Part shown: piece after piece, positions 3,535 through 64,000 of the stretch
Layout of the letters: each line of letters opens with the position of its first letter
How positions within the stretch are numbered: the first letter of the stretch is position 1
Assembly: GCA_000004695.1 (NCBI GenBank)
Contig: CM000152.2
Coordinates: 384,001-448,000 of the forward strand
Length of the DNA: 64,000 bases
Reading direction: 5' to 3'
Origin: Dictyostelium discoideum
Lineage: Eukaryota
Translations under genes and position numbers: made by a program
Notes under the pieces: model-generated
Database searches by the model: none
Told to the model about the DNA's origin: nothing
The model's input: only the letters and a program-made list of their open reading frames with translations

Positions 3535-3739
3535 AAAAAAAAAAAAAAAAACTGGAAAAAAAAAAATCAGAAAAAAAAAAAAAAAAAAAAAAATATTGAT
3601 TTTAGATAATCTTTTTTAAAATAAAGTTTACAAAATAATATTTAAACTATTTATTAATTTTTATATATATGTACACTAGAATATTTTTTTATTTATTTTT
3701 ATTTAGATTTTTTTTTAGATTTTTTTTTTTTTATTTTAT

Positions 3740-4320
3740 TTATGGTTGATATTGTGGTTGTTGTTGTTGTGGTTGATAGAATTGTGGTGGTTGTTGTGGA
3801 ACTTGTTGATAAGTTGGATAAGCTCCTTCACTTTGATAAATTGGAATGGTGGCAGGTGGACTTTGTCCAACGCATGATTTTGTGAATTCACATTCATTAT
3901 AATGTTTAACCATCTTGTGAGTATAAAATGCATCAAATAGCCAACCTAAACCAAATACACCTGCTGTAAAGAAATATAAAAAGAATGTACCAACTCTTCC
4001 TAAATATAATCTTTAAATTTATTTTTTTTTAAAAAAAAAAAAAAAATTAATATTTTAAAAATATATTTTTGTGTGTGTGTTTTTATTAAATTAATTAATT
4101 TTTACCTGTGGAAACCTAAAATACCAAAAAAGAACCAAAGTACATAAGCAACGGTCATTGATTTTGGACAATATGATGATGATCTTGATCCATATACAAC
4201 TGGAACTGGTGTAACAATTGGTGTAACTAAAACTGCACCTCCACCATAGTGTCCACTACCATGATGGTGATGATGATGGTGATGACCGCTGCCTCCGTGA
4301 TGATGATGATGATGACCCAT
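3740..4320 (-). CDS. TM2 domain-containing membrane protein with N-terminal poly-His tracts, 2 exons: 4106..4320 and 3740..4010
   Basis: Minus-strand exon 1 reads MGHHHHHHGGSGHHHHHHHHGSGHYGGG...CPKSMTVAYVLWFFFGILGFH and ends at a GTAAAA donor at 4105-4104. The intron is 95 nt. The acceptor is the AG at 4012-4011. Exon 2 continues RLYLGRVGTFFLYFFTAGVFGLGWLFDAFYTHKMVKHYNECEF...QQQPQYQP* with the stop at 3742..3740. The GxHR(F/L)YLG...GxxGxxWxxD pattern matches the TM2 family. The track ORF 3736..3936 is a different, chance-open frame. Confidence 0.75.
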
Positions 4321-5079
4321 TTATATTATATTATATTTTTATTTTATTTTATTTTTATTTTATTTTTATTTTATTTTATTTTTTTATTTTACAATATACT
4401 TTTATTTATTTTATGTATATATATTTTTTTTCTTTGGAAATATAAGAAAAAGAAAAAAAAAAAAAAAAATTTTTAGTGCCTTTTGGTGTGAAAAAAAAAA
4501 AAATAAAAAAAATAAAAAAAATTTAATTCAAAAAAAAATAAAATAAATTTGCGTTATATTGATATCTCAAAAAATCAAAAAATCAAATAATTTATTTTTT
4601 ATTTTTTTTAATTTTTTTTTTTTTTTTGAAAATTTAAAAAAAGGGATCGCAGACTCACATTTTTATTTTTTTTTAATCATTAAGAAATCTGTCATTCTCT
4701 TCACCCAAAAAAACAAACTAAAAAAAAAAAAGAAAGAAATTTCTTTTTTAACCAAAGAATTATTAATAATACCAATAAAACTCGTTAATATTTTTTTTAA
4801 AATGACCAATCTTTAAGTAAAAAAAAAAAATTAAAATAAAATAATTATATAAATATATAATTTAAAACCAAATAATATTTTGTTTTCCTTAAAAAAAAAA
4901 AAAAAAAAAAAAATTAATCGTTGGAAAAAAAATCATTAACTTAAAAATATATCGAAAATCAAACAATAAAAAAAATGGAATTTTAAATGTTTAATTGATT
5001 GTGATATTAAATAAATATTATTTGTTAAAAAATGAAATTATTATTAACAATATTATCAAAATAATGTTATATTGTTTTT

Positions 5080-5403
5080 TTACTCCGTCATTTGGTATTT
5101 TTTCATTTTTTTGTTTGTTTAATTGGTAAATAAATTCATCAGTTGAGTTTGAAAATAAAATATCAATTTTACCATTTTCATAAAAATAAGTATAATTTGT
5201 AAAATTACCAAAACAACGAATAATTTGATCATTTTCAATTGAACAACTTGTAACAGTTGGTAATTCAAAATAAAATTCAGTACGTGTAGTTTGGTTACCA
5301 ATTGAAATTGAAATTTGATTCCTTCCACAACCTTTTGGAATTCGGAAGAGAATATATCATTGGAATTATCAATACCTTTAATAGTTGTATTATAATTATC
5401 CAT
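5080..5403 (-). pseudogene. Small ORF family member (copy A), frameshifted relative to paralog copy B at 7115..7267
   Basis: The N-terminus MDNYNTTIKGIDNSNDIFSSEF aligns at nucleotide level with copy B (MDNTIIKGTASSNQTYTFQIPKGCGKNEISISMGNQITRTE). Copy A is 1 nt short near 5340, so its conserved segment (IPKGCGRNQISISIGNQTTRTEFYFELPTVTSCSIENDQIIRCFGNFTNYTYFYENGKIDILFSNSTDEFIYQLNKQKNEKIPNDGVKKTI*) sits in a different frame from its ATG. Confidence 0.4.
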
Positions 5404-5622
5404 GAATGAAAGAGTTTGTAAACTATTATTATTTATTATTACATTTACATTATATAATGTATAGTTTACAAGTTGACCAAGTACTGATAGTGGTAGTGAT
5501 GGTTGTGATGATTTACAAAGAATGAAATCAATTTGGATAACATTTGATTTTTTACCATTTGCAATTAAATATAAATTTGAATTTTTAAAAGTTTGATTTG
5601 AAGGTGTAAATGATTAAGTTGT

Positions 5623-5922
5623 TTGTTTAATATGGATTCATTTTCATTTAAATTTAATAATAATTATAAAACAAATGAAGTTTATTTAAATGTTTGTATT
5701 GAACTATTACCAATTACTAATATTGTATTAAATTCAACAATTCAAACATTTCAACCAACAATAACAATAAATACATTACAACCTCAATTAAATAGTTCGG
5801 CAGAGCAAGAAAATAAAGAAAATAAAACCAACAGTGACAGTTTTAGTTCAAATGAAAACATATTAAATAAGAAACAAAAAAATGAAAAAATAACAAATGA
5901 CGGAGTAAAAAAAACAATATAA
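5623..5922 (+). CDS. Small hypothetical ORF (99 aa) sharing only its C-terminus/3' flank with copy A via the inverted repeat
   Basis: Track ORF MFNMDSFSFKFNNNYKTNEVYLNVCIELLPITNIVLNSTIQ...KKQKNEKITNDGVKKTI. The last ~14 codons and the downstream ~85 bp lie inside the right IR arm. No recognisable domain. Confidence 0.3.
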   Translation: MFNMDSFSFKFNNNYKTNEVYLNVCIELLPITNIVLNSTIQTFQPTITINTLQPQLNSSAEQENKENKTNSDSFSSNENILNKKQKNEKITNDGVKKTI

Positions 5923-6324
5923 CATTATTTTAATAATATTGTTAATAATAATTTCATTTTTTAACAAATAATATTTATTTAATATCACAATCAATTAAAC
6001 ATTTAAAATTTTATTAAAGTTTTATTTTTATTTTTATCTTTTTTTGATTTAATAAATGCTCATTTATCATTAGTTTTTTTTATTGTTTTTTTTAAAAATA
6101 GATTAGTTGGATGGGACAATGGAATGATTAAAATAAAAAGAAAATAAAAAAAAAAAAAAAAAAATAAAAAAACTTTGGAAAAAAAAAAAAAAAAAAAAAA
6201 AAAGCGAAAAAAAAGTGAAAAAAAAGCGAAAAAAATGTAAAATGAAAAATTTTTGTAAAACCCATAACATGTGCTCAAACAAAATAGCATTTTAGGGCAA
6301 GTTGAATTTATTTTTTAAAGTTAT

Positions 6325-6475
6325 GAAAAGATCTTGCACTCGGATTTCAATCCGATTCATTAGGGATTCCATCTCTAGTGAGTTTAGATTTCGTTTGCAG
6401 AGAAAAAACCTAGGCAGTTTCCACATCTGACTTTTCCTATATAAGAGCCTGATACTATTCACTCAAGCCTATATT
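6325..6475 (+). ncRNA. Candidate small non-coding RNA gene / Pol II-III small-RNA promoter unit (DUSE-like motif + GC-normal island)
   Basis: An ACCCATAA at ~6263-6270 matches the Dictyostelium upstream sequence element consensus CCCA(C/T)AA, which lies ~60 bp upstream of many ncRNA genes. About 60 bp downstream starts a ~150-nt GC-normal segment inside an AT desert (gatcttgcactcggatttcaatccgattcattagggattccatctctagtgagtttagatttcgtttgcagag...) with no ORF. It contains a hairpin-capable cggatttcaatccgattc and a TATATAAGAG box at ~6438, and it ends before a poly-A/T run. I could not match it to U1/U2/U4/U5/U6, 7SL, a tRNA or the Class I RNA motif by eye. Confidence 0.3.
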
Positions 6476-6477
6476 CC

Positions 6478-6513
<36 letters not shown>

Positions 6514-6860
6514 ACCAATTATAAAATAGATAGATTTATTAATTGATTCATTTATTAATTATTATTATTATTACTATTAAAATAATTTAAAACTCAATAA
6601 TATTTTTTTTTTCTAAAAAAAAAAAAAGATTAGTCACTAAAAAAAAAAAAAGTGTGGGTTTAATGATAATTATGAAAATCATATACAACTACTAGTAGAA
6701 ATTAATATTAGTAGTAAATACTATTAGTAAAAATTATAAATAAAATAATTAAATAATCAATTAATTAAAAAAAAAAAAAAAATTCTACAAATAACATATA
6801 TATTTATTTTTAAAAAATAGTTTATGTGATGCCAATTAAATTAAAAAACCCCAAAAAAAA

Positions 6861-7017
6861 AAAAAAATAATAATTACCTTTTGGTGTATAAGATCCATCA
6901 ATTTTGAAATTAAAAAAACAAATAAAAATAAAAATAAAAATATAATTTTCATATTGTAATTGCAATGTTTAGATCTTATACACCAAAAGGTAATTATTAT
7001 TTTTTTTTTTTTTTTTT
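6861..7017. repeat. Perfect palindrome / MITE-like hairpin element (≈45-bp arms, ~75-bp loop)
   Basis: aaaaaaaaaaaaaataataattaccttttggtgtataagatc at 6861..6898 has an exact inverted partner gatcttatacaccaaaaggtaattattatttttttttttt at 6974..7017. The arms end in A/T homopolymers. Confidence 0.8.
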
Positions 7018-7114
7018 TAAAAAAAATTAACTTAAATTTGACACTTTTTTAATTTTTATATTTAGTTATTAATGTAAATGTAATAGATAAAATAGTTTAC
7101 CAACTCTTAAATTG

Positions 7115-7267
7115 ATGGATAATACAATTATTAAAGGTACTGCCAGTTCAAATCAAACATACACTTTCCAAATTCCAAAAGGTTGTGGAAAGAATGAAAT
7201 TTCAATTTCAATGGGTAACCAAATTACACGTACTGAATTGAATTATGAATTACCATGTGAATTTTGA
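7115..7267 (+). CDS. Small ORF family member (copy B), 50 aa, hypothetical
   Basis: ATG at 7115, reads MDNTIIKGTASSNQTYTFQIPKGCGKNEISISMGNQITRTELNYELPCEF*. It is a nucleotide-level paralog of copy A at 5080..5403. It is below the track's ORF size cutoff and its function is unknown. Confidence 0.35.
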   Translation: MDNTIIKGTASSNQTYTFQIPKGCGKNEISISMGNQITRTELNYELPCEF

Positions 7268-7452
7268 AGAATTTAATTTAATTTCACCCACACCATGACC
7301 ACCACCACCACCACCACCGCCACCACCATTACCGAAACACTGTGTCAAAATTAAATAAAATAAAAAATGGATTTAATCATTTATTTTTATTATCTTTTTT
7401 TTTTATTTTTTTATTTTTTTTATTTTTTTTTTATTTTATTTTATTTATTTAT

Positions 7453-8277
7453 TTATTTCTTGGTGGGAAATTGAAAACTGAAAAAAATATTAAAATTAGC
7501 TAATAAACCTGGACAAGCTTGTTTAATTGAAGTTGTATCTAAAGTTTGATTAAAAATGGATTCTTTTTCTAAAAGATTATAAATTTCATAGGATGGTTCT
7601 TGATGTGATTTAATATTTAATTTCTCTAATAATTCAGTTTCGTTATCTTCATAGAAATGGTATCTTCCACCTAATCTTTGTTCAATTAATTCAACTGGTG
7701 TTTTACAATAAATATAAACACTATTATAATTTTCATTATTAATTTCAATAATTTTTTTGATTTCTTTAATTAATTTTTCATTATCATTATTATTATTAAT
7801 AATATTATTATATATAATTGAACTAATTGGAGATCTATGAATAAATATAATATTATTTTTAATTTCATCTTGATTATTATTATTATTATTATTTTTAATT
7901 AATTCAATTGATTGATTTAATGTATTATCAAATGATGATGTGGGTGGTGATGATAATGAATGTTTAAAAAATGAATTTTGAATAGTTTTATAACCAATAT
8001 TTGAAAATCTTTCTAAAAGTTGTTGTTTTCCACTACCACTTGGACCTTCTAAAAAAACAAATAATGGTTTCTTTTGTTCTTTAGATTTCTCTAATGCCTC
8101 TGATAGATTATCTGTTGGTTTCCACCATTCTCTTTCAACTGATCCTTCTTCTCTTATAGATTTTGAATAAAATTTTAATGATGATAAAGATGTTAAAGAT
8201 TCACCAAAAATTTTATTTTTTAAACAAATATTATTAATAGTTGATGATGTAAAATTATGATTTCTAACTAAAAACAT
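7453..8277 (-). CDS. P-loop NTPase, divergent nucleoside/nucleotide-kinase-like protein
   Basis: The ATG is at 8277; the track ORF starts at an upstream TTG. Walker A reads LFVFLEGPSGSGKQQLLERF. Later motifs (IIFIHRSPISSIIY, LIEQRLGGRYHFYEDNE) resemble the ERS and arginine-lid regions of dNK/dCK-type kinases, with a poly-N insert. The family assignment is tentative. Confidence 0.5.
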   Translation of the reverse strand: MFLVRNHNFTSSTINNICLKNKIFGESLTSLSSLKFYSKSIREEGSVEREWWKPTDNLSEALEKSKEQKKPLFVFLEGPSGSGKQQLLERFSNIGYKTIQNSFFKHSLSSPPTSSFDNTLNQSIELIKNNNNNNNQDEIKNNIIFIHRSPISSIIYNNIINNNNDNEKLIKEIKKIIEINNENYNSVYIYCKTPVELIEQRLGGRYHFYEDNETELLEKLNIKSHQEPSYEIYNLLEKESIFNQTLDTTSIKQACPGLLANFNIFFSFQFPTKK

Positions 8278-9143: not shown

Positions 9144-11891
9144 ATGAAATTTAAAATAATAATAGTTTTAATATTATTTATAATATTTAATTATTATATT
9201 ATAAATATAAATGGATCATTTGATTTTAAATCAAAAAAGAATGTTGTTGGATATTATTCAAATAATTTAAAGAATAAAACATTAAAATATCATACATTAG
9301 GAGAATTTTGTCAACAAGGTAGTTATGATACAATTGTAATTGGGTCACTCTATTGGAATCAAAATATGACACAATTTTATTTTGAATGTCAAGATTATTA
9401 TTCATTAACTCAAGATAAAGAAAAAGAATTGGGTGTCGCAACAACACCAGTCCAACATTTAAAAGCATTTGATTTCTCAAAAAGAGGTGTTCAAAATGCA
9501 ATGAAAGAACAAATTTCTGACGAAGAAGAAGAAGAAGAAGTTGATATTCCAACAACAAAAACAAAAACAACAGCAACAAAAGCAAAAACAACAACAACAA
9601 CAACAACAATTAAAAAAATTGGTATTGAAAAGAATACATATCTTTCAAATAAATGTATTGATTTAAGAAATGATATAATTAAATGTCAAAATATTGGTGT
9701 TAAAATTTTAATTCAAGTTGGTAGTAAAGGTGGTATTGGTGAATTTGGGAATACATCAATTGCTACCAAAGAAATGGCTCAAAAATTGGCAGTTAAAATT
9801 TGGGATATGTTTTTATTTGGTGATGGTGGTAGAAAAGAGTATCAAGATAAATTAAAAGGTATAGATACAAAACCAAAGAATGATGGATCGTCAAGTGAAG
9901 AAATTGCATCATTTGGTAGTATTGAATCAATGGATGATCAAAGTGGTGATATTGAAGATATCGATCGTTTCAGTAGTGAAGTTAAAAAAGATGATTCCTC
10001 CTCAAACTCAACTGCATCACTTGGTGAATTGGATGATTATCAAGATGAACAATCTTATCAAGAGGAATATTCAAATGATGAAGATACAGATCCACCAATA
10101 CCAGATGATGAAGATTCTGAATATGTTGATCAAGAACAATATGAAGATGAAGAGGAGGACGATGATGAAGATGCAGTTGATGAAGATGGTAATCCAATTG
10201 TAAAGAAAAAGAAACAACCATCAACTTCAAAAGCACCAGAAAGAAAGAAGAAATTATTGGTTTTCCCACCACGTCCATTTGGTTATGGTGTATTTTTAGA
10301 TGGTGTTGATTTCTCACCAATGATTGGTAAAAGTGATAACTACTATCATTTGGCAATGGGTTTAGATAGATATAGAGTACCAAAGAAGGATTTATTCACC
10401 ATTTCCTCAACTGTGGATTGTTCGCTACTTCATAGTAAAAAAGAAAGTATGACCTCTTCTCCAACTGCTTTATTACGATTTAATTTCGATATTCTCACTT
10501 TAGATTTCGTTCATAATAAACAATGTGATTATTGGTCAAAAGTTAGTGATCAATGGATTATCGATTGGGCAAACTATACAAAAGACTATAAATTCAATCA
10601 AACTAAACTACTCTTAATGGCATCTTCAAATCCAAAGGATTCTGCTTTCTTCTCTCCAAAATTCTTTTTAATGGAATATACAAAATATTGCATTGATTTA
10701 CCAAATATGGCAGGTGTTTTTATCTCTGATGTTTTATCAGCTTCAAAGATTTATAATTCAACCACTAGATTGGATTTCTCTCAAGAAATATCAAAAGATG
10801 TTAAATCATTTAATCCATTAATTTATCATCATCCAGAAGGTACTCGTCCAGCTTGGACCTATGGTGGTGGTTCTAAACCTCCAACTTCACCTGCAACTAA
10901 ACCAATTCAAACTAAACCGCCAATTACCAAAGGTCCAATTATAACAATGTCTCCTAACAAAACTAAAACTTCAACAACTACCAAACCAGTACCAACAAAA
11001 ATTCCAATTATTGATAATAGTAATTCAACTTCAACAACTGTTAAAAAAGCAAATTCTTCACATTCAACTCCAACACCCACTATTAAATTAAGACCAACTC
11101 ATGCACCATTAAAAACACAATCACCTGAACCAAAAACTGAATCACCAACTCCCACTAGTACTCCAACACCTTCCTCAACAGTTGCAAAAACTACTCATGC
11201 ACCATTAAAAACTCAATCCCCAACACCAAAATTAATACCTATTACTAAAAAACCAATAACACCAACCAAAGCTCCAATAACTAAAGCTCCAATCCCAGTA
11301 ACTGAATCACCAACACCAGAGACTGAATCACCAATTAAATTGAGACCAACTCATAGACCACTAAAAACACAATCTCCAGAGACCGAATCAACAAAACCAA
11401 CTAAACCACCAACAACAACAACACCAAAACCAACTAAACCACCAACATCACCATCACCATCACCAAAACCAACCAAACCACCAACAACATCAGCACCACC
11501 TAAAAAAGAAACAACATCACCAATAAACTTAAGACCAACTCATAAACCACTAACACAACCACCAGTTGATGAATCTAAGACTAAAGTTTTGGACATTTCT
11601 GATGAAACAGAAACTAGAGTAATAACCATTCCAGATGATTCTGAAACACCGGCTAAATTAGAAATTCCAGACAATACAAAACCAGAAACACCGATTGAAT
11701 CCTCTGTTCCAATCAAATCTGTTGCTGCAGTTGATAAAACACCTGTTAAATCCGCTGCTCCAATCGAATCAGCTTCTCCAGTTGATGAAATACCTGTTGA
11801 ATCCGCTGCTCCAGTTGAAGAAACTAGAAGTAGAAGACATAAACCAATAAGTGCAACCGAATTTGATAAAAATTTCATCACAAATCAATAA
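9144..11891 (+). CDS. Secreted GH18 (class III chitinase/hevamine-like) domain protein with degenerate catalytic motif, an acidic insert, and a C-terminal Pro/Thr/Ser-rich mucin-like repeat tail
   Basis: N-terminal signal peptide MKFKIIIVLILFIIFNYYIININGS. GH18 class III blocks: VVGYYSN...TLGEFCQQGSYDTIVIGSLYW, KCQNIGVKILIQVGSKGGIGEFG, RPFGYGVFLDGVDFSPMIG and DYWSKVSDQWIIDWANY...LLLMASSNP. The canonical DGxDxDxE is replaced by DGVDFSPM (the Asp and the Glu are lost), so the protein is probably inactive, like narbonin/concanavalin B. The tail carries ~21-aa repeats (IKLRPTHAPLKTQSPEPKTESPTP / LRPTHRPLKTQSPETEST / NLRPTHKPL). Confidence 0.8.
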   Translation: MKFKIIIVLILFIIFNYYIININGSFDFKSKKNVVGYYSNNLKNKTLKYHTLGEFCQQGSYDTIVIGSLYWNQNMTQFYFECQDYYSLTQDKEKELGVATTPVQHLKAFDFSKRGVQNAMKEQISDEEEEEEVDIPTTKTKTTATKAKTTTTTTTIKKIGIEKNTYLSNKCIDLRNDIIKCQNIGVKILIQVGSKGGIGEFGNTSIATKEMAQKLAVKIWDMFLFGDGGRKEYQDKLKGIDTKPKNDGSSSEEIASFGSIESMDDQSGDIEDIDRFSSEVKKDDSSSNSTASLGELDDYQDEQSYQEEYSNDEDTDPPIPDDEDSEYVDQEQYEDEEEDDDEDAVDEDGNPIVKKKKQPSTSKAPERKKKLLVFPPRPFGYGVFLDGVDFSPMIGKSDNYYHLAMGLDRYRVPKKDLFTISSTVDCSLLHSKKESMTSSPTALLRFNFDILTLDFVHNKQCDYWSKVSDQWIIDWANYTKDYKFNQTKLLLMASSNPKDSAFFSPKFFLMEYTKYCIDLPNMAGVFISDVLSASKIYNSTTRLDFSQEISKDVKSFNPLIYHHPEGTRPAWTYGGGSKPPTSPATKPIQTKPPITKGPIITMSPNKTKTSTTTKPVPTKIPIIDNSNSTSTTVKKANSSHSTPTPTIKLRPTHAPLKTQSPEPKTESPTPTSTPTPSSTVAKTTHAPLKTQSPTPKLIPITKKPITPTKAPITKAPIPVTESPTPETESPIKLRPTHRPLKTQSPETESTKPTKPPTTTTPKPTKPPTSPSPSPKPTKPPTTSAPPKKETTSPINLRPTHKPLTQPPVDESKTKVLDISDETETRVITIPDDSETPAKLEIPDNTKPETPIESSVPIKSVAAVDKTPVKSAAPIESASPVDEIPVESAAPVEETRSRRHKPISATEFDKNFITNQ

Positions 11892-11987
11892 TACTCAATT
11901 GAAAAAAAAAAAATACATTTAGAATAAAAAAAAAAATATAAAAAGTAACATTATATCATTATTTTATTATTTTATTGTTTAAATTAA

Positions 11988-13691
<1,704 letters not shown>

Positions 13692-21755: not shown

Positions 21756-24648
<2,893 letters not shown>

Positions 24649-28649: not shown

Positions 28650-30044
28650 ATGAAAGTTTTATTATTATTGGTTTGTTTAGTTTTTGCTTATGTTAATGCA
28701 AGTTATGATGCATGTTACAATGTAGTTTGTCCAAGTAACTATCAATGTAGAGCTGAAGGTGATCAAGCTTATTGTGTACCAGAACATCATGAGTATGGTT
28801 GTGATAGACATTCATGTGGTCGTGGTTATGAATGTGTTGAGCGTTGGGATTCCTTTTGTTGTAAACCAATTCATCACCGTCCACACCCACACCCACGTCC
28901 ACCACATCCACACCCACGTCCAACCAATTGTGATTACACTTCTTGCCCAAGAGAATTTGATTGTCATGTAATCAATAGAAATGTCACTGCTTGTTTACCA
29001 GATAACCATGTTTGCAGAGATTTCCAATGTCCAGTAGGTACTCATTGTTTCAATGGTGAAAGAGGTCCACACTGTGTAAGTGATACTCATTATCCAAATT
29101 TATGTCGTGTAACCAAATGTTCATATGATTTCACTTGTAAAATGGTTAGAGGTAATCCAACTTGTTTAAGAAATCATGATGGTATTTCAACCCATTCTCC
29201 AACCCATACCCCAACCCATTCTCCAACCACCTCTCCAACTCATTGTCCATCTTGTACCGAATTAGCTCCATTTTGTCATTCTGCAGGTTTGGTTTGTAGA
29301 ACTATTCTTAATCCATCTTGTGTTTCTGCAGTAAGAGGTATCATCAATACTAGATCTTGTTGTACCTATATTGCAGTATGTGCTTCAAATTCAACTTCAA
29401 CAACTGGCGCTACTACTGGTGCTACTACACCCACAAGCACAACTGGTGCTGCAACTACCGCTGCTGCTACTACCACTACAGCCACAAGTACAACTGGTGC
29501 TGCAACCACTGCCCCAGCAACTACTACAACCACAAGTACAACTGGTGCTGCAACTACTGCCCCAGCAACTACAACCACAAGTACAACTGGTGCTGCAACC
29601 ACTGCCCCAGCAACTACTACAACCACAGCCACAACTATAGTAGGTGTTACCACTGCTAATTCAGTAGGTGGTTTAACTACTACTAGAGCAACAACAGTTG
29701 CTGGTGTCACTACTGCTAATTCAGTAGGTGGTTTAACTACTGCCGGCATTACAACAGTTGCTGGTGCCACTACTGGTAATTCAGTAGGTGGTTTAACTAC
29801 TGCTAGAGCAACAACAGTTGCTGATGTCACTACTGCTAATTCAGTAGGTGGTTTAACTACTGCCGGCGTTACAACAGTTGCTGGTGCCACTACTGGTAAT
29901 TCAGTAGGTGGTTTAACTACTGCTAGAGCAACAACAGTTGCTGATGTCACTACTGCTAATTCAGTAGGTGGTTTAACTACTTCTAGAGCAACAACAATTG
30001 CTGGTGCCACTACTGCCAATTCAATAGGTGGTTTGACAAATTAA
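28650..30044 (+). CDS. Secreted Cys-rich N-domain / Thr-Ala-Gly-rich tandem-repeat (mucin-like) protein, paralog A
   Basis: Signal peptide MKVLLLLVCLVFAYVNA. Two Cys-rich modules separated by a HHRPHPHPRPPHPHPRP linker. The second module (NCDYTSCPREFDCHVINRNVTACLPDN...FNGERGPHC...YPNLCRVTKC...MVRGNPTCL) is shared with the 32548 gene. Then tandem TTGAATTAPATTTT and ANSVGGLTTARATTVA(G/D)VTT repeats. Confidence 0.7.
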   Translation: MKVLLLLVCLVFAYVNASYDACYNVVCPSNYQCRAEGDQAYCVPEHHEYGCDRHSCGRGYECVERWDSFCCKPIHHRPHPHPRPPHPHPRPTNCDYTSCPREFDCHVINRNVTACLPDNHVCRDFQCPVGTHCFNGERGPHCVSDTHYPNLCRVTKCSYDFTCKMVRGNPTCLRNHDGISTHSPTHTPTHSPTTSPTHCPSCTELAPFCHSAGLVCRTILNPSCVSAVRGIINTRSCCTYIAVCASNSTSTTGATTGATTPTSTTGAATTAAATTTTATSTTGAATTAPATTTTTSTTGAATTAPATTTTSTTGAATTAPATTTTTATTIVGVTTANSVGGLTTTRATTVAGVTTANSVGGLTTAGITTVAGATTGNSVGGLTTARATTVADVTTANSVGGLTTAGVTTVAGATTGNSVGGLTTARATTVADVTTANSVGGLTTSRATTIAGATTANSIGGLTN

Positions 30045-30384
30045 AATTTTAATCAAAACAGAAACACCTAAAACAAGAAATGGAAAACGTAAATAAAATT
30101 TTAATTTATTTAAATTTTTTTATTTTAGATTTTATTTTTTATTTCTAAATTTTATTTTTTTATTTTTCTATTATATTTTTTATTTTTTTTTATTTATTTT
30201 ATTTTATTTTTACTTTTTTTATTTTATTTTTACTTTTTATTTATTTTATTTTTATTTTTAATTTTATTTTTAAATTTATTTATTTTGTTTTTATTTTTAA
30301 ATTTTATTTTTATTTTTATTTATTTTATTTTATTTTATTTTTACTTTTTTTTATTTTTATAAAGATTTAGAACAATTTGATGAT

Positions 30385-32547: not shown

Positions 32548-35500
32548 ATGAAAGTTTTTTTATTAATATTATTGGTTTGTTTTATTTCTATTAATGTTGA
32601 TGCATTTCATAATTATAGAGCCAATTGTGATTACACCTCTTGTCCTAGAGAATTTAGTTGCCATGTAATCAATAGAAATATCACTGCTTGTTTACCAGAT
32701 AATGATATTTGTAGAAATTTTCCATGTCCACAGGGTAGTCATTGTTTCAATGGTGAAAGAGGTCCTGGTTGTTTTGATGATATCCATTATCCAAATTTAT
32801 GCTATGTAACCCATTGTTCATTGGATTATGATTGTAGAATGGTTAGAGGTGATCCAATATGTTTAAGATTTCAAAATGTTAATCCAACTAATACTCCAAC
32901 CCCCACCCCAGTTCATTGTACCACTTGTGCTGAACTAGCTTCTACTTGTCACTCTGATGGTTTAGTTTGTAGAACTATTGTTAATCCCAAGTGCCGTGGT
33001 AATTCAATAAAAGCTCTCGCCAAAACTAAAGCATGTTGTCCATATATTGCATTTTGTGATTCAAATTCAACCTCACACACAACTGGGGTACAAACAACAA
33101 CAGGAAGAAGTACGACTGGTGTACAATCAACAACTGGTAGGAGTACAACTGGTAGAAGTACAACTGGTAGAGGTACAACTGGTACAAGTACAACTGGTAC
33201 AAGTACAACTGGTACAAGCACAACTGGTAGAAGCACAACTGGTACAAGTACAACTGGTACAAGTACAACTGGTAGAAGTACAACTGGTACAAGTACAACT
33301 GGTACAAGTACAACTGGTACAAGTACAACTGGTACAAGCACAACTGGTACAAGTACAACTGGTACAAGCACAACTGGTACAAGTACAACTGGTACAAGTA
33401 CAACTGGTACAAGTACAACTGGTACAAGCACAACTGGTACAAGCACAACTGGTACAAGCACAACTGGTACAAGTACAACTGGTAGAAGCACAACTGGTAG
33501 AAGTACAACTGGTAGAAGTACAACTGGTAGAAGTACAACTGGTAGAAGTACAACTGGTAGAAGTACAACTGGTAGAAGTACAACTGGTAGAAGTACAACT
33601 GGTTCCGCTTCAACCACAGGAAGAGGTACAACTGGTTCTGCTTCAACCACAGGAAGAGGTACAACTGGTTCTGCTTCAACCACAGGAAGAGGTACAACTG
33701 GTGCTGCTTCAACCACAGGAAGAAGTACAACTGGTAGAGGTACAACTGGTAGAAGTACAACTGGTAGAAGTACAACTGGTTCCGCTTCAACCACAGGAAG
33801 AGGTACAACTGGTTCCGCTTCAACCACAGGAAGAAGTACAACTGGTTCCGCTTCAACCACTGGAAGAAGTACAACTGGTTCTGCTTCAACCACAGGAAGA
33901 GGTACAACTGGTTCTGCTTCAACTACAGGAAGAGGTACAACTGGTTCTGCTTCAACCACAGGAAGAGGTACAACTGGTTCTGCTTCAACCACAGGAAGAG
34001 GTACAACTGGTTCTGCTTCAACCACAGGAAGAAGTACAACTGGTGCTGCTTCAACCACAGGAAGAAGTACAACTGGTAGAGGCACAACTGGGGTACAATC
34101 AACAACTGGTGCTGCTTCAACCATAGGAAGAAGTACAACTGGTTCTGCTTCAACCACAGGAAGAGGTACAACTGGTGCTGCTTCAACCACAGGAAGAAGT
34201 ACAACTGGTGCTGCTTCAACCACAGGAAGAAGTACAACTGGTAGAGGTACAACTGGTGCTACTACTGCTAATTCAATAGGTGGTTTGACAACTGCTGGCG
34301 TCACAACAGTTGCTGGAGTAACTACTGCTACTGCCTCAACCGTTGCTGGAGTAACTACTGCCTCAACCGTTGCTGGTGTAACTACTAATTCAATAGGTGG
34401 TGTAACCACAGGAAGAGGTACAACTGGTGCTGCTTCAACTACAGGAAGAAGTACAACTGGTAGAGGTACAACTGGTGCTACTACTGCTAATTCAATAGGT
34501 GGTTTAACAACTGCTGGCGTCACAACAGTTGCTGGAGTAACTACTGCTACTGCCTCAACCGTTGCTGGAGTAACTACTGGTAGAGGTACAACTGGTTCTG
34601 CTTCAACCACAGGAAGAGGTACAACTGGTGCTGCCTCAACCGTTGCAGGAGTAACTACTGCTAATTCAATAGGTGGTATAACCACTGCTACTGCCTCAAC
34701 TGTTGCTGGAGTAACTACTGCTAATTCAATAGGTGGTTTGACTACTGCTGGCGTCACAACCGTTGCTGGAGTAACTACTGCCTCAACCGTTGCTGGAGTA
34801 ACTACTGCCTCAACCGTTGCTGGTGTAACTACTAATTCAATAGGTGGTGTAACCACAGGAAGAGGTACAACTGGTGCTACTACTGCTAATTCAATAGGTG
34901 GTGTAACCACAGGTAGAGGTACAACTGGTGCTACTACTGCTAATTCAATAGGTGGTTTAACAACTGCTGGCGTCACAACAGTTGCTGGAGTAACTACTGC
35001 TACTGCCTCAACCGTTGCTGGAGTAACTACTGCTACTGCCTCAACAGTTGCTGGAGTAACTACTGCTAATTCAATAGGTGGTTTGACAACTGCTGGCGTC
35101 ACAACAGTTGCTGGTGTCACTACTGTCAATTCAATAGGTGGTGCAACCACTGCCAATTCAATAGATGGTGCAACCACTGCCACTGCCTCAACCGTTGCAG
35201 GAGTAACTACTGCTAATTCAATAGGTGGTATAACCACTGCTACTGCCTCAACTGTTGCTGGAGTAACTACTGCTAATTCAATAGGTGGTGTAACCACAGG
35301 AAGAGGTACAACTGGTGCTGCTTCAACTACAGGAAGAAGTACAACTGGTAGAGGTACAACTGGTGCTACTACTGCTAATTCAATAGGTGGTTTAACAACT
35401 GCTGGCGTCACAACAGTTGCTGGAGTAACTACTGCTACTGCCTCAACCGTTGCTGGAGTAACTACTGCTAATTCAATAGGTGGTTTGACAACTGCTGGCG

Positions 35501-38500
35501 TCACAACAGTTGCTGGTGTCACTACTGTCAATTCAATAGGTGGTGCAACCACTGCCAATTCAATAGATGGTGCAACCACTGCCACTGCCTCAACCGTTGC
35601 AGGAGTAACTACTGCTAATTCAATAGGTGGTATAACCACTGCTACTGCCTCAACTGTTGCTGGAGTAACTACTGTCAATTCAATAGGTGTAACAACTGCT
35701 AGTTCAATAGGTGGTTTAACAACTGCTGGCGTCACAACCGTTGCTGGTGCCACTACTGCCAATTCAATAGGTGGTTTAACTACTGCTGGCATTACAACAG
35801 TTGCTGGTGCCACTACTGTCAATTCAATAGGTGGTTTGACAACTGCTGGCATCACAACAGTTGCTGGTGTCACTACTGCCAATTCAATAGATGGTGCAAC
35901 CACTGCCACTGCCTCTGCCTCAACCGTTGCAGGAGTAACTACTGCTAATTCAATAGGTGGTATAACCACTGCTACTGCCTCATCTGTTGCTGGAGTAACT
36001 ACTGCTTCAGTTGGAGGTTTGACAACTGCAGTTGCCTCTACAGTAGCTGGAGTAACTACTGCTGCTTCAATAGGTGGCGTAACCACTGCTACTGCCTCAA
36101 CCGTTGCTGGAGTAACTACTGCCTCAACCGTTGCTGGTGTAACTACTAATTCAATAGGTGGTGTAACCACTGCTACTGCCTCAACTGTTGCAGGTGTAAC
36201 TACTGCTGCTTCAATAGGTGGTTTAACTACTGCTGGTTTAACAACAGTTGCTGGATTTACCACTGCTGCCTCTGTTGGAGGTTTAACTACTGCTGGTGCT
36301 ACAACAGTTGCTGGTTCAACAACTTCCCCAGCATCAGTAGGTGACTTAACTACTGCTGGAGCAACAACAGTTGCTGGGGTTACCACTGCTGCTTCTGTTG
36401 GAGGTTTAACTACTGCTGGTGCTACAACAGTTGGAGGTTTAACTAATGCTAATTCAATAGGTGGTGTAACCACTGCTACTGCCTCAACGGTTGCTGGTGT
36501 AACTACTAATTCAATAGGTGGTGTAACCACTGCTACTGCCTCAACTGTTGCAGGTGTAACTACTGCTGCTTCAATAGGTGGTTTAACTACTGCTGGTTTA
36601 ACAACAGTTGCTGGAGTAACTACTGCTTCAGTTGGAGGTTTGACAACTGCAACTGCCTCTACAGTAGCTGGAGTAACTACTGCTGCTTCAATAGGAGGTT
36701 TAACTACTGCCGGCATTACAACAGTTGCTGGTTCAACAACAACAGTTGCTGGAGTCACCACTGCTGCTTCTGTTGGAGGTTTAACTACTGCTGGTGCTAC
36801 AACAGTTGCTGGAGTTACTACTGCTGCTTCTATTGGAGGTTTAACTACTGCTGGTGCTACAACAGTTGCCGGAGTTACTACTGCTGCTTCTATTGGAGGT
36901 TTAACTACTGCCAGTTTAACAACAGTTGCTGGTTCAACAACTTCCTCTTCATCAGTTGGTGGTTTAACTACTGCTGGAGCAACAACAGTTGCTGGAGTAA
37001 CTACTGCTGCTTCTGTTGGTGGTTTAACTACTGCTGGTATTACAACAGTTGCTGGAGTTACTACTGCTGCTTCTGTTGGAGGTTTAACTACTGCCGGTTT
37101 AACAACAGTTGCTGGTTCAACAACTTCCTCTTCATCAGTTGGTGGTTTAACTACTGCTGGAGCAACAACAGTTGCTGGAGTTACTACTGCTGGAGCAACA
37201 ACAGTTGCTGGAGTTACTACTGCTGCTTCTGTTGGAGGTTTAACTACTGCCGGTATTACAACAGTTTCTGGAGTAACTACTGCCAATTCAATAGGTGGCG
37301 CGAACACCGCTACCGCCGGTATAACTACTGCTGGAGCAACAACAGTTGCTGGAGTTACTACTGCTTCTGTTGGTGGTTTAACTACTGCCGGTATTACAAC
37401 AGTTGCTGGAGTAACTACTGCTGCTTCTGTTGGTGGTTTAACTACTGGTATTACAACAGTTGCTGGAGTTACTACTGCTGCTTCTGTTGGAGGTTTAACT
37501 ACTGCCGGTTTAACAACAGTTGCTGGTTCGACAACTTCATCTTCATCAATTGGAAGTTTGACTACGGCTGGTTTAACAACAGTTGCTGGAGTTACTACCG
37601 CTGCTTCTGTTGGAGGTTTGACAACTGCCGGTGTAACAACAGTTGCTGGCTCAACAACTTCCCCAGCATCAGTAGGTGGTTTAACTACTGCTACTGCCTC
37701 AACGGTCGCTGGAGTTACTACTGCCGCTTCAATAGGAGGTTTAACTACAGCTGGTATAACAACAATTGCTGGTTCAACAACTTCTGCTTCATCAGTGGGT
37801 GGTTTAACTACTGCTGGTTTAACAACAGTTGCTGGAGTTACTACTTCTGCTTCTGTTGGAGGTTTTACAACTGCCGGTATAACAACAGTTGCTGGTTCAA
37901 CAACTTCCCGAGCATCAGTAGGTGGTTTAACTACTGCTGGTGCTACAACAGTTGCTGGAGTTACTACTGCTGCTTCTGTAGGTGGTTTAACTACTTCTTC
38001 TTTGACAACAGTAGCTGGTGTCACTACTGGTACTGCTTCTGTTGGTGGTTTAACGACTGCTGGTGTAACTACCACCGCTGCTTCTGTTGGTGGTTTAACA
38101 ACTGCAGGTATTTCAACAATATCTGGTGTTACTACTGCCACAGCCTCAACGGTGGCAGGTATGACTACTGCCGCTGCTACATCAGGTGGTGTTTCAACTG
38201 CTACCGTATCATCAGGTGCCACAACTACTCAGGCATCAACACTATTTGGAATAACAACTGCTGCTTCTGTAGGCGCTTTAACAACAGCAGGTATGACAAC
38301 AGTCGCTGGTTTTACTACTGCTGCTTTTGTAGGTGGTTTAACAACTGCTGGTTTAACAACTGCTGGTGTAACTACTACCGCTGCTTCTGTTGGTGGTTTA
38401 ACAACTGCTGGTGTAACAACTACTGCTGCTTCTGTTGGTGGTTTAACAACTGCTGGTGTGACTACTACCGCTGCTTCTGTTGGTGGCTTAACAACTGCTG

Positions 38501-38805
38501 GTGTAACTACTACCGCTACTTCATCAGGTAGTGTTTCAACTGCTACCGTATCATCAGGTGCCACAACTACTCATGCTTCAACACTATTTGGAATAACAAC
38601 TGCTGCTTCAATAGGTGCTTTAACAACTGCAGGTATGACAACAGTAGCTGGTGTTACTACTGCTGCTTCTGTAGGTGGTTTAACAACTGCTGGTCTATCA
38701 ACAGTATCTGGTGTAACTACTTCTGCTTCTGTGGGTTCTTTAACAACTGCTGGTTCAACAACTCGTTCTGGTTCAACAACTCGTTCTGGTATAATAGGTG
38801 GTTAA
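32548..38805 (+). CDS. Giant secreted Cys-rich N-domain / Thr-Gly-rich tandem-repeat (mucin-like) protein, paralog B (2085 aa)
   Basis: Signal peptide MKVFLLILLVCFISINVDA. The N-domain NCDYTSCPREFSCHVINRNITACLPDNDICRNFPCPQGSHCFNGERGPGC...YPNLCYVTHC...MVRGDPICL...CTTCAELASTCHSDGLVCRTIVNPKC...ACCPYIAFCDSNSTS is ~60% identical to paralog A. About 1,900 aa of nested tandem repeats follow: TTG(T/R)S (15-nt units), GSASTTGRGTT (33-nt units) and ANSIGGLTTAGVTTVAGVTT (60-nt units). It is a single uninterrupted ORF. Confidence 0.75.
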   Translation: MKVFLLILLVCFISINVDAFHNYRANCDYTSCPREFSCHVINRNITACLPDNDICRNFPCPQGSHCFNGERGPGCFDDIHYPNLCYVTHCSLDYDCRMVRGDPICLRFQNVNPTNTPTPTPVHCTTCAELASTCHSDGLVCRTIVNPKCRGNSIKALAKTKACCPYIAFCDSNSTSHTTGVQTTTGRSTTGVQSTTGRSTTGRSTTGRGTTGTSTTGTSTTGTSTTGRSTTGTSTTGTSTTGRSTTGTSTTGTSTTGTSTTGTSTTGTSTTGTSTTGTSTTGTSTTGTSTTGTSTTGTSTTGTSTTGTSTTGRSTTGRSTTGRSTTGRSTTGRSTTGRSTTGRSTTGRSTTGSASTTGRGTTGSASTTGRGTTGSASTTGRGTTGAASTTGRSTTGRGTTGRSTTGRSTTGSASTTGRGTTGSASTTGRSTTGSASTTGRSTTGSASTTGRGTTGSASTTGRGTTGSASTTGRGTTGSASTTGRGTTGSASTTGRSTTGAASTTGRSTTGRGTTGVQSTTGAASTIGRSTTGSASTTGRGTTGAASTTGRSTTGAASTTGRSTTGRGTTGATTANSIGGLTTAGVTTVAGVTTATASTVAGVTTASTVAGVTTNSIGGVTTGRGTTGAASTTGRSTTGRGTTGATTANSIGGLTTAGVTTVAGVTTATASTVAGVTTGRGTTGSASTTGRGTTGAASTVAGVTTANSIGGITTATASTVAGVTTANSIGGLTTAGVTTVAGVTTASTVAGVTTASTVAGVTTNSIGGVTTGRGTTGATTANSIGGVTTGRGTTGATTANSIGGLTTAGVTTVAGVTTATASTVAGVTTATASTVAGVTTANSIGGLTTAGVTTVAGVTTVNSIGGATTANSIDGATTATASTVAGVTTANSIGGITTATASTVAGVTTANSIGGVTTGRGTTGAASTTGRSTTGRGTTGATTANSIGGLTTAGVTTVAGVTTATASTVAGVTTANSIGGLTTAGVTTVAGVTTVNSIGGATTANSIDGATTATASTVAGVTTANSIGGITTATASTVAGVTTVNSIGVTTASSIGGLTTAGVTTVAGATTANSIGGLTTAGITTVAGATTVNSIGGLTTAGITTVAGVTTANSIDGATTATASASTVAGVTTANSIGGITTATASSVAGVTTASVGGLTTAVASTVAGVTTAASIGGVTTATASTVAGVTTASTVAGVTTNSIGGVTTATASTVAGVTTAASIGGLTTAGLTTVAGFTTAASVGGLTTAGATTVAGSTTSPASVGDLTTAGATTVAGVTTAASVGGLTTAGATTVGGLTNANSIGGVTTATASTVAGVTTNSIGGVTTATASTVAGVTTAASIGGLTTAGLTTVAGVTTASVGGLTTATASTVAGVTTAASIGGLTTAGITTVAGSTTTVAGVTTAASVGGLTTAGATTVAGVTTAASIGGLTTAGATTVAGVTTAASIGGLTTASLTTVAGSTTSSSSVGGLTTAGATTVAGVTTAASVGGLTTAGITTVAGVTTAASVGGLTTAGLTTVAGSTTSSSSVGGLTTAGATTVAGVTTAGATTVAGVTTAASVGGLTTAGITTVSGVTTANSIGGANTATAGITTAGATTVAGVTTASVGGLTTAGITTVAGVTTAASVGGLTTGITTVAGVTTAASVGGLTTAGLTTVAGSTTSSSSIGSLTTAGLTTVAGVTTAASVGGLTTAGVTTVAGSTTSPASVGGLTTATASTVAGVTTAASIGGLTTAGITTIAGSTTSASSVGGLTTAGLTTVAGVTTSASVGGFTTAGITTVAGSTTSRASVGGLTTAGATTVAGVTTAASVGGLTTSSLTTVAGVTTGTASVGGLTTAGVTTTAASVGGLTTAGISTISGVTTATASTVAGMTTAAATSGGVSTATVSSGATTTQASTLFGITTAASVGALTTAGMTTVAGFTTAAFVGGLTTAGLTTAGVTTTAASVGGLTTAGVTTTAASVGGLTTAGVTTTAASVGGLTTAGVTTTATSSGSVSTATVSSGATTTHASTLFGITTAASIGALTTAGMTTVAGVTTAASVGGLTTAGLSTVSGVTTSASVGSLTTAGSTTRSGSTTRSGIIGG
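33090..38790. repeat. ~5.7 kb coding tandem-repeat array (15-, 33- and 60-nt unit families, near-identical copies) inside the 32548..38805 gene
   Basis: Dozens of consecutive copies of units such as actggtacaagtaca or ggtacaagtacaactggtagaagtacaact. The long antisense track ORFs over this region (32949..38222, 33026..33922, 33047..34126, 33923..34252, 38229..38564) are mirror artefacts of the repeat. Confidence 0.9.
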
Positions 38806-43973: not shown

Positions 43974-46638
<2,665 letters not shown>

Positions 46639-63819: not shown

Positions 63820-63981
<162 letters not shown>

Positions 63982-64000
63982 TTTGTATATTTTTTTTTTT

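Follow-up and report, generated by a model that had tools for sequence, protein, structure and literature searches.

The window analysed here is a 64-kb stretch of Dictyostelium discoideum chromosome 3 (AX4/AX2-type), and the interval of interest within it is flanked by DDB_G0278163 (TM2) and DDB_G0278169. The interval contains an inverted repeat with a core at 4979–5108 (− strand) and 6010–5880, a 130/131-nt match with two substitutions and one single-base indel; the inner ends of the core are separated by 771 nt. The initial annotation had described this repeat as 129 bp long with copies ca. 770 bp apart, and it is real. Weaker homology flanks the core (4894–5119 versus 6093–5869, 86%). In the left arm, the degraded outer stretch (4894–4978) corresponds to the 3' flank of a tgr copy on the − strand and has no sharp edge; the right arm (5880–6093, + strand) is made up of the core at 5880–6010 and an outer degraded part at 6011–6093. 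With pure AT and trinucleotide microsatellites left out of the tally, the only other inverted repeat in the 64-kb window is the pair formed by the fragments called copy A and copy B below (5258–5457 versus 7255–7066, 82% over 201 nt, with a core of 90 nt at 91%). No further copies of the repeat core were found in the 64-kb window, and in ten related loci (ca. 200 kb) it occurs elsewhere solely at the 3' ends of tgr genes. The region 3657–6483 is base-for-base the same in an independent long-read assembly (GCA_054883475.1), which rules out an assembly artefact.

Small ORFs on opposite strands run into the two arms, and a common C-terminus had been claimed for them. This holds for KNEKI[P/T]NDGVKK and not for the final KKTI and stop, which copy A does not have – there a run of 7 A follows and the frame reads on as QYNIILIILLIIISFFNK to a stop, while in the + strand ORF the run is of 8 A and the stop comes directly after TI. 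Homology at the protein level continues upstream of the ATGs of both ORFs, so the ORFs are not bounded by their own start codons. On the − strand, 5108→5018 codes for the ancestral last 30 codons and stop of a tgr gene (KNEKIPNDGVKKQYNIILIILLIIISFFNK), and 5017–4979 is the 3' flank of that copy. The repeat core is the end of a tgr gene that codes for a hydrophobic tail (predicted, YNIILIILLIIISFF) plus ca. 40 nt of 3' flank, and the C-terminus that it encodes is also present in the intact Tgr proteins P0006, P0008 and P0035.

Fragments of a short-form tgr gene

All three small ORFs in the interval are pieces of the last ca. 270 codons of one short-form gene from the Tgr ('tiger') family, which encodes cell-surface proteins with TIG/Ig repeats (Ig_TgrO1 and TIG domains). 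By tblastn, the 702-aa Tgr protein P0008 is collinear with them: residues 410–596 match 5625→5111 on the − strand (E 1e-44), residues 584–676 match 5626→5910 on the + strand (copy C, E 1e-30), and residues 473–533 match 7091→7255 on the + strand (copy B, E 1e-15). Contrary to an earlier statement that no known domain was evident, copy B matches the Pfam family PF24612 (Ig_TgrO1) with 32.5 bits, where the cut-off is 27.9; copy A, as reconstructed, stays under that cut-off with 20.3 bits. The full-length relatives of the fragments score 82 bits for Ig_TgrO1 and 32 bits for TIG (PF01833), and they end in NKQKNEKIPSEGVKKQYNIILIIVSIIISF, which is the repeat sequence in the 7-A frame. Segments A, B and C are also found inside the 618–1626-aa Tgr genes of L002 and L004. 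A search of 5.8 billion proteins with the ORF returned tgr-derived relatives and no others.

Copy A (5018–5629, − strand; P0008 residues ca. 410–596) is a tgr pseudogene fragment in which the Ig-like part is fused directly to the tail. Its nucleotide sequence is 95.5% identical to the intact ORF of P0035, and its lesions include a TAA stop at 5616–5614, −1 frameshifts within 5337–5355 and 5125–5143, and other small indels. The first of these frameshifts, a 1-nt deletion, accounts for the earlier observation, borne out here, that copy A is 1 nt out of frame relative to copy B. Copy A also has a 254-nt internal deletion. Alignment to both arms of other strains places its junction inside a TTTAAT/ATTAAA-type microhomology on the − strand, to 5104–5126 and not to the base. 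The segment lost from copy A (S2) is the segment retained in the + strand ORF.

That segment and the tail make up copy C (5626–5971, + strand; P0008 residues ca. 584–676), which lacks the first ca. 580 codons of the gene and matches the coding sequence of P0035 at 95.7% identity. Its A-run, which lies inside 5902–5923, contains one A too many, and this truncates the hydrophobic tail: the open ORF is 5632–5922, and the ancestral stop at 5969–5971 is now out of frame.

Copy B (7066–7255, + strand) is an older and more diverged fragment of the Ig_TgrO1 region, 63 codons long (P0008 residues 473–533), with 82% identity to copy A and 85–87% to the copies in other strains. Close to it lies the relic of a tgr exon 1 (6878–6952, − strand), with 5' UTR, a signal peptide (MKIIFLFLFLFVFLIS), the splice donor AAAAG/GTAATT and a 1-nt deletion; it matches the first exon of the tgr gene at the syntenic position in the strain assembly ACTFIW (87%) and that of three tgr genes in L004. 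This signal-peptide exon (6952→6878) is no longer joined to the other pieces. Immediately upstream of the relic, the last part of exon 1 and the first part of the intron are present again in reverse orientation, as a perfect 29-nt inverted repeat (6867–6895 and 6972–7000, together spanning 6867–7000). The whole region 6695–7348, which holds copy B and the exon-1 relic, is missing from two other D. discoideum assemblies, and this may mean either that it was inserted in the AX lineage or that it was lost elsewhere.

None of the three copies is a full-length intact ORF, as copy A has a stop, frameshifts and a deletion, copy B is a fragment and copy C has the extra A. Likewise, none of the ORFs is self-contained with its own start and signal peptide, and their paralogues are all internal parts of large Tgr ORFs. 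The dN/dS values of the fragments relative to the intact ORF were 0.66, 1.13 and 2.8 (ca. 1.1 for the ORF of copy C), based on 12–22 substitutions each; these values appear compatible with an absence of constraint, on too few sites for a decisive call.

The same locus in other strains and species

In D. discoideum GCA_054859355.1 (ACTFIW), the same locus holds a near-full gene (residues 30–680) facing an inverted copy (residues 280–680), the latter being the intact ORF P0035. The arms are ca. 1.24 kb long and 96.9% identical with a 2.3-kb spacer, and the left arm is an intact 340-codon ORF. The same head-to-head duplication is present at this locus in D. discoideum GCA_054859385.1 (ACTFIR), with arms of 577–611 nt that both encode an identical 112-aa ORF. 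Given the identical ORFs of ACTFIR and the intact 340-codon ORF of ACTFIW, some tgr copies in other strains may still be functional. No recognisable tgr coding sequence was found at the locus in D. citrinum, D. dimigraforme or one cryptic-species genome; a second cryptic-species genome has just a degraded trace of a tgr 3' end with 71% similarity.

The arms are more alike within a strain (differing at 2 of 138 sites in the window and 3 of 387 in ACTFIR) than between strains (8–13 of 139 sites, copy A tail versus the arms of other strains), and this was counted in favour of gene conversion. In one other D. discoideum strain, the contig with this locus also carries intact short-form relatives at a distance of ca. 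100 kb, and a weaker possibility is that the relic arms, homogenised by gene conversion, could act as donor cassettes for such genes.

Junctions and a proposed deletion history

The − strand and + strand copies meet at a central head-to-head junction with TTTA microhomology (5626–5629). The window follows the left arm of ACTFIW up to GTTTGTTTA and then the right arm of ACTFIW from (TTTA)ATATGG, so that its centre is, relative to ACTFIW, a deletion of ca. 3.5 kb. In ACTFIR, the left arm is joined to the right arm at AACAACTT. Read as deletions, these junctions show what appear to be independent microhomology-mediated losses across the centre in different strains. What the sequences show directly is the homology and collinearity, how the locus is built in other strains, the sequence at each junction, and the lesions.

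The interval is very probably pseudogene debris left by the partial head-to-head duplication of one short-form tgr gene and its subsequent erosion through deletions. We infer the order and direction of events, the gene conversion and the loss of function as follows. In the D. discoideum lineage, a copy of a ca. 690-aa Tgr gene would have arrived in the interval flanked by DDB_G0278163 (the TM2 gene) and DDB_G0278169, and its 3' ca. 1.2 kb would then have been duplicated in reverse, giving a palindrome-like structure with 5' ends facing. Gene conversion from arm to arm may have kept the two arms alike, and deletions of the palindrome centre, with short microhomologies at their ends, would have removed different parts in different strains. 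In the AX4/AX2 lineage, one deletion of ca. 3.5 kb (at TTTA, 5626–5629) would have taken out the centre and left the Ig-like segment on the − arm only, and a second deletion, of 254 nt, would have taken the next segment from the same − strand arm. Because of these two deletions, the arms would hold complementary pieces of the gene and have in common only the last 30 codons and ca. 40 nt of flank. Point lesions – the stop and −1 frameshifts in copy A and the additional A in the + strand ORF – would have completed the decay. Copy B and the inverted exon-1 relic are presumably older debris of the same kind of gene. The structure in ACTFIW, the longest, is taken as ancestral, a parsimonious choice and not a proven one. 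It took the place of a model that puts the Ig segment in the middle of a perfect palindrome; this was considered and dropped in favour of an ACTFIW-type structure with its 2.3-kb spacer. One observation counts against this history: the two centre deletions end no more than ca. 10 nt apart in gene coordinates, on opposite arms, and such proximity of independent deletion ends is a coincidence of ca. 2%.

Gene models and alternative explanations

The AX4 annotation has a gene model here, DDB_G0278165, for a 100-aa protein (5632–6131, + strand; exons 5632–5904 and 6102–6131, predicted intron 5905–6101). P0056 has the sequence of the copy C ORF up to NDG and then ISWMGQWND and a stop. What is predicted as an intron is the repeat arm with the tail codons, shifted out of frame, and the model is on that account probably an annotation artefact; two AX2-214 gene models on the tgr relic probably are artefacts as well. 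AX2-214 is the probable strain of the assembly ACTFIT, whose proteins are nearly identical to those of AX4. A literature search found no mention of DDB_G0278165 or DDB_G0278167. That the ORFs are nevertheless a functional, lineage-specific family of small proteins, with DDB_G0278165 as a real protein, is distinctly improbable. The copy C ORF is open for 96 codons from its ATG and is annotated as protein-coding in AX4, and the two identical 112-aa ORFs of ACTFIR are in keeping with such a family. What this ORF encodes, however, is a C-terminal stalk of a Tgr protein and part of its tail, started at an internal Met and lacking a signal peptide; in the AX type, the additional A deprives it of the hydrophobic tail, and the same tail, out of frame, makes up the annotated intron. 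Its dN/dS near 1.1, the disruption of copies A and B, and relatives that are exclusively tgr-derived also speak against a small-protein family. The proposal of a gene for a small secreted or cysteine-containing peptide fails because the duplicated unit is the 3' part of a large (ca. 690 aa) Tgr cell-surface gene. The accompanying suggestion of an inverted segmental duplication survives as to the duplication and not as to its unit, which is this 3' Tgr part, broken by a stop, frameshifts and deletions. It is hardly conceivable that the interval is a non-autonomous DNA element with terminal inverted repeats of ca. 130 bp whose ends overlap the 3' ends of ORFs. Two near-identical inverted arms of ca. 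130 nt, ca. 0.8 kb apart, do resemble one, but both arms consist of coding DNA from a gene family of the host, homology fades gradually outward to 4894 and 6093 with no sharp ends, and two other strains have at this site arms of 0.6 and 1.24 kb that are collinear with the gene. Target-site duplications, suggested earlier as a check at 4980 and 6010, were not seen: no direct repeat flanks 4979/6010 or 4894/6093, where the sequences are GGAATTTT on the left and AAAATTTTATT on the right. No tRNA genes that could mark targets of TRE-type retroelements were found.

Recombination between the arms could also have flipped the intervening segment, in which case the AX type would have come from an ACTFIR-like form by inversion of the Ig segment and two deletions. 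This flip-flop was attractive from the segment orientations, as the Ig-like segment is on the − strand in the window (5250–5623) and on the + strand in ACTFIR, and its 5' truncation points in the two lie within ca. 10 nt of each other. It was rejected on the junction sequences and is improbable: the central junction of the window retains 6 nt of upstream gene sequence (TGTTTA) that ACTFIR has lost, so the window cannot derive from the ACTFIR junction. Starting from an ACTFIW-like palindrome, one microhomology deletion is enough to explain each strain with every base accounted for, whereas the inversion requires more events and leaves 2 nt over. Under the preferred reading of eroded tgr debris, a functional protein from this interval is not likely, and the small ORFs are likely to be frames open by chance in decaying coding sequence.

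A conserved block beside the relic

Wherever a genome has the tgr relic, a block (6303–6482, ca. 180 nt) that does not belong to the relic follows directly on its 3' side. The block has ca. 40% G+C and 3 variable columns in ca. 178 across four genomes, and its flanks differ by 10–15%. It would be the only sequence in the interval under evident constraint, as judged from these alignments. A DUSE-like motif, ACCCATAA (6260–6267, + strand), is conserved in the four genomes ca. 36 nt ahead of the block and ca. 60 nt ahead of 6325–6330, the spacing being relative to a putative start; the DUSE, [AT]CCCA[CT]AA, sits ca. 60 nt upstream of the transcript start (PMC7919456). In the window the motif is not enriched, with 7 found versus 10.5 expected. 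Rfam gave no match at the gathering threshold on the whole window, nor at E≤10 on 6000–7100. The block folds no better than shuffled sequence (z-scores −0.8 on the + strand and +0.4 on the − strand), and a search of 1.84 billion representative proteins found no homologue of its 56-aa − strand ORF. The interval is maybe not all debris; tentatively, 6260–6482 is a candidate for a small ncRNA gene of a family absent from Rfam, which is possible and rather doubtful.

Significance and comparison with known systems

The analysis removes a false lead, since what looked like a small-protein family or a TIR element is decaying tgr sequence. It also provides a small natural series, with base-resolved microhomology junctions at the centre, in which one inverted duplication is eroding in three strains (arms of 1.24 kb, 0.6 kb and 0.13 kb). 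The series is an example of how tgr genes, a family with fast turnover, shed fragments at a site other than the main tgrB/C hotspot. As rapid duplication, dispersal and fragment formation of tgr genes are already published, a specialist would not be surprised; the conserved block beside the relic is the one item possibly worth further attention.

The closest known system is the tgr family itself. There are many genes of the tgrA/H/I/O type, which insert at new genomic positions and leave behind numerous incomplete pieces, and 26 AX4 pseudogenes have been listed (Holland et al., PNAS 2025, PMC12745789). The sequences here share with those members and fragments the Ig_TgrO1 and TIG domains, the signal-peptide exon 1 and the hydrophobic C-terminal tail, are collinear with full-length Tgr proteins at 60–75% protein identity, and match the published behaviour in their copies at new sites, partial fragments and presence or absence between strains (PMC12745789). 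Unlike the named tgr genes, they are unrecognised in the annotation, in which DDB_G0278165 is a 'hypothetical protein'. Their nearest intact relatives are the ca. 690-aa short-form genes of other strains and species; the best full-length matches in AX4, the chromosome 6 proteins Q54EL4, Q54EH0 and Q54EL9, are just ca. 55% identical. Divergent pairs of the tgrB1/tgrC1 type likewise have two tgr-type sequences head-to-head with 5' ends facing, but the arms here copy one gene (97–99% identical within a strain) and are not partners sharing a promoter, and both tgr sequences in the window are truncated.

MITE-like and foldback elements also have inverted, near-identical arms around a short internal segment. 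Unlike them, the structure here has no defined termini and no target-site duplication, its arms are host coding sequence, and a dispersed family was not seen in the 64-kb window and ca. 200 kb of related loci. Long palindromes are unstable in yeast, mouse transgenes and the human Y chromosome, where deletions across the centre shorten them and gene conversion from arm to arm keeps the arms alike. The structure here differs in being small, in a very AT-rich genome and made of a decaying gene, and the same mechanism is proposed for it from sequence comparison only. The likeness lies in the series of one palindrome in three strains (1.24-kb, 0.6-kb and 0.13-kb arms), in microhomology junctions of 4–8 bp that join arm to arm, and in arms that are more alike within a genome.

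Inverted repeat and its surroundings

The feature lies on AX4/AX2-type chromosome 3, in the 3.1-kb gap between DDB_G0278163 (TM2 domain, 3740–4320, - strand) and DDB_G0278169 (274 aa, 7453–8277, - strand), as both flanking proteins match AX4 proteins exactly. The inverted repeat reported in the initial annotation is real. Its core, 4979–5108 (left arm) against 6010–5880 (right arm), is 130/131 nt long, and its arms differ by two substitutions and a 1-nt indel; weaker homology reaches 4894–5119 and 6093–5869. The region 3657–6483 is identical in an independent long-read assembly, GCA_054883475.1, so neither the repeat nor the frameshifts described below are sequencing artefacts. Over its first 22 kb, the window is 99.64% identical to CM142509.1 (6.43 Mb) of that assembly, differing in homopolymer lengths and a few substitutions.

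Pure AT and trinucleotide microsatellites aside, the 64 kb contain no inverted repeats other than these arms and a pair at 5258–5457 and 7255–7066 (82%), which belong to the fragments called copy A and copy B below. The window is 24.4% G+C. Long microsatellites of pure A/T (0% G+C) are found at 12920–13130, 21960–22190, 46200–46415 and 63820–64000; the A/T tracts match one another on both strands at 88–97% and swamp any naive repeat search. Highly self-similar tandem repeats occupy ca. 4.8 kb at 34000–38800, where shifted copies are 72–78% identical; two shorter tandem duplications (93% identity, 38–53% G+C) are found at 29400–30050 and 46800–47400. All three are presumably repeat-rich coding regions.

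The small ORFs are fragments of a tgr gene

Three fragments are present: copy A (5018–5629, - strand), copy C (5626–5971, + strand, DDB_G0278165) and copy B (7066–7255, + strand). In three-frame translation, the homology of copies A and B continues 5' of their ATGs. Reconstructed copy A matched five Dictyostelium proteins. In two of these, P0001 and P0002, copy A sequence is followed collinearly by that of the + strand ORF (...STDEIYLP..DFK.DSFSFQLNK.YKTNQVYLNVC...), which shows that copies A and C are adjoining stretches of a single gene that now occupy different strands. In the tgr clusters of other strains, large Tgr genes (618–1626 aa, with Ig_TgrO1 and TIG domains) have this module of ca. 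1 kb as their 3' end. A full-length example is P0006, from the tgr cluster of strain ACTFIW, with a 671-codon exon, 686 aa and a C-terminal end of ...NKQKNEKIPSEGVKKQYNIILIIVSIIISFLTNNILKSQLF (Ig_TgrO1, 82 bits; TIG, 32 bits). On P0008, a 702-aa Tgr protein, copy A covers residues 410–596, copy C 584–676 and copy B 473–533. The closest full-length AX4 proteins are Tgr proteins of chromosome 6, at ca. 55% identity. No known domain had been seen in these ORFs, but copy B is an Ig_TgrO1 domain (PF24612; 32.5 bits, Pfam cut-off 27.9); frameshift-corrected copy A scores 20 bits against the same model and cut-off.

The gene model P0002 (ACTFIW_003143, 334 aa; 10001–12585 of the ACTFIW cluster locus) joins an EF-hand protein to the C-terminal 180 residues of a tgr fragment. 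It sits on the margin of a cluster containing three Tgr genes, and is a chimera or else a wrongly joined model.

The 129-bp repeat of the initial annotation corresponds to the final 30 codons of the gene, which in the seven-A frame specify a hydrophobic tail, together with ca. 40 nt of 3' flank. The two ORFs do share KNEKI[P/T]NDGVKK, but not the common KKTI ending that had been proposed: copy A has seven A's and continues as QYNIILIILLIIISFFNK to its stop, while the + strand ORF has eight and stops after TI.

The reading of the feature as an inverted segmental duplication was borne out; the arms are inverted copies of the 3' part of tgr, and longer collinear arms are found in strains ACTFIW and ACTFIR. 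What was duplicated had been taken for a possible family of small secreted or cysteine-containing peptides, but the ORFs are pieces of a large Tgr gene. In the other reading offered, the arms would be the terminal inverted repeats of a non-autonomous element. A transposon was rejected on these grounds: the arms are host coding sequence with fading ends, no direct repeat flanks them as a target-site duplication, their length varies between strains at one fixed site, and across the window plus ten related loci the repeat core turned up solely at this locus and where tgr genes end at their 3' side. The feature is an inverted duplication rather than a small-protein family or a mobile element, and consists of pseudogene debris of the known, fast-evolving tgr family.

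The same locus in other genomes

Using orthologs of the 274-aa and TM2 proteins, the syntenic region was found in six more genomes. In GCA_054859355.1 (ACTFIW, probably OT3A), the locus has an almost complete Tgr gene (P0008 residues 30–680, exon 1 included) facing an inverted partial copy (residues 280–680) that is an intact ORF, P0035; the arms are ca. 1.24 kb, 96.9% identical, with a 2.3-kb spacer. In GCA_054859385.1 (ACTFIR, probably CR116C), the arms are 577–611 nt with 8 mismatches, and the Ig-like segment, in + orientation, makes up the 365-nt spacer. No tgr sequence was found in the 1.1–1.3 kb of syntenic intergenic DNA of D. citrinum, D. dimigraforme and one 'cf. discoideum' genome. 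In ACTFIY, also 'cf. discoideum', no tgr coding sequence was detectable at the locus; what is left is a 71%-similar remnant of the tgr 3' end (7979–8185 of the ACTFIY locus), adjoining the conserved block described below. This remnant suggests that the tgr insertion predates the split of the ACTFIY lineage from D. discoideum. In ACTFIW, the contig with this locus also carries intact short-form tgr genes at a distance of ca. 100 kb; in other genomes such genes would be nearby too, judging from locus-tag numbering only.

Origin of the present structure

The junction sequences discriminate between models of this origin. At 5626–5629, the window matches the left arm of ACTFIW as far as GTTTGTTTA and then its right arm from (TTTA)ATATGG. 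A single deletion of ca. 3.5 kb across the palindrome centre, with 4 bp of microhomology, would account for the AX form. At the ACTFIR centre, the left arm is joined to the right at an 8-bp microhomology (AACAACTT). The AX lineage would have kept the Ig-like segment of the - strand arm and ACTFIR that of the + strand arm, which would explain why its orientation differs between the window and ACTFIR. A later deletion (254 nt, junction within 5104–5126) would then have excised the adjacent segment of the left arm in the AX lineage, leaving arms with complementary halves of the module that overlap only in the tail. Derivation of the AX form by a spacer flip of the ACTFIR form was rejected, since the window retains six bases missing from ACTFIR. 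The arms differ at 2 of 138 sites in the window and 3 of 387 in ACTFIR, while differences between strains number 8–25; this greater likeness within genomes points to homogenisation by arm-to-arm gene conversion.

Decay of the copies and gene models

Lesions were scored against P0035, the intact ortholog from ACTFIW (340 C-terminal codons). Copy A (95.5% identity) has a TAA at 5616–5614, single-base deletions within 5337–5355 and 5125–5143, further small indels, and the 254-nt deletion, which removes exactly the segment that copy C retains. The deletion within 5337–5355 explains the 1-nt frameshift noted earlier and lies in sequence identical in the long-read assembly. Copy C (95.7%) loses its tail to one extra A, and copy B is a 63-codon fragment (86.6%). 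Relative to the intact ORF, dN/dS is 0.66, 1.13 and 2.8 for copies A, C and B; these values, from small counts, are compatible with an absence of constraint.

The AX4 model DDB_G0278165 (100 aa) is built on copy C, with 5904 spliced to 6102, which turns the frameshifted tail into an 'intron'. In the AX2-214 annotation (GCA_054883475.1), one model links copies C and B across an intron of ca. 1.2 kb (150 aa; 6492–8124 of that locus, window 5632–7267), and another translates copy A out of its proper frame (106 aa; 5533–6263, window 4673–5403). All three models are probably artefacts of gene calling on pseudogene DNA.

Older debris and a conserved block

The region 6695–7348 is missing from both other D. 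discoideum assemblies (ACTFIW and ACTFIR). It contains a relic of tgr exon 1, the signal-peptide exon (6952 to 6878, - strand), with 5' UTR, MKIIFLFLFLFVFLIS, the donor AAAAG|GTAATT and a 1-nt deletion; four tgr genes have a first exon to which the relic aligns. The end of the exon and the start of the intron are present as a perfect 29-nt inverted pair (6867–6895 and 6972–7000, 76-nt spacer), a second, small fold-back rearrangement at this locus. Copy B, also in this region, is 11–15% diverged from every other copy. Directly after it is a short ORF, MTQCFGNGGGGGGGGGGHGVGEIKLNSSKFTW (7250–7348, - strand), in a segment found, among the loci compared, only in AX-type sequence (the window and GCA_054883475.1).

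A block of ca. 180 nt (6303–6482, + strand, ca. 40% G+C), located after the right arm and before the exon-1 relic, has only three variable columns among ca. 178 in four genomes, including the cryptic species, in which the adjacent flank is only ca. 85% identical. A conserved DUSE-type motif, ACCCATAA (6260–6267), lies ca. 60 nt 5' of position ca. 6325, matching the spacing of ca. 60 nt upstream in Dictyostelium ncRNA genes (PMC7919456). The region 6260–6482 may be an undescribed small ncRNA gene. However, the block has no Rfam match, significant fold or protein homolog, and the motif alone is not enriched in the window. The block is missing from the syntenic gap of D. citrinum, D. dimigraforme and one cryptic-species genome.

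Comparison with known systems

The value of this locus is mainly in the erosion series seen across three strains and in the correction of the annotation. In other organisms, palindromes are known to be eroded by deletions that span the centre and to have their arms homogenised, as proposed for this tgr locus. According to Holland et al. (PMC12745789), genes of the tgrA/H/I/O type are numerous, insert at new genomic sites and leave many partial fragments; duplications and inversions around tgrB/C are reported as well. The present locus is another instance of this dispersal and fragmentation, at a site not annotated as tgr.
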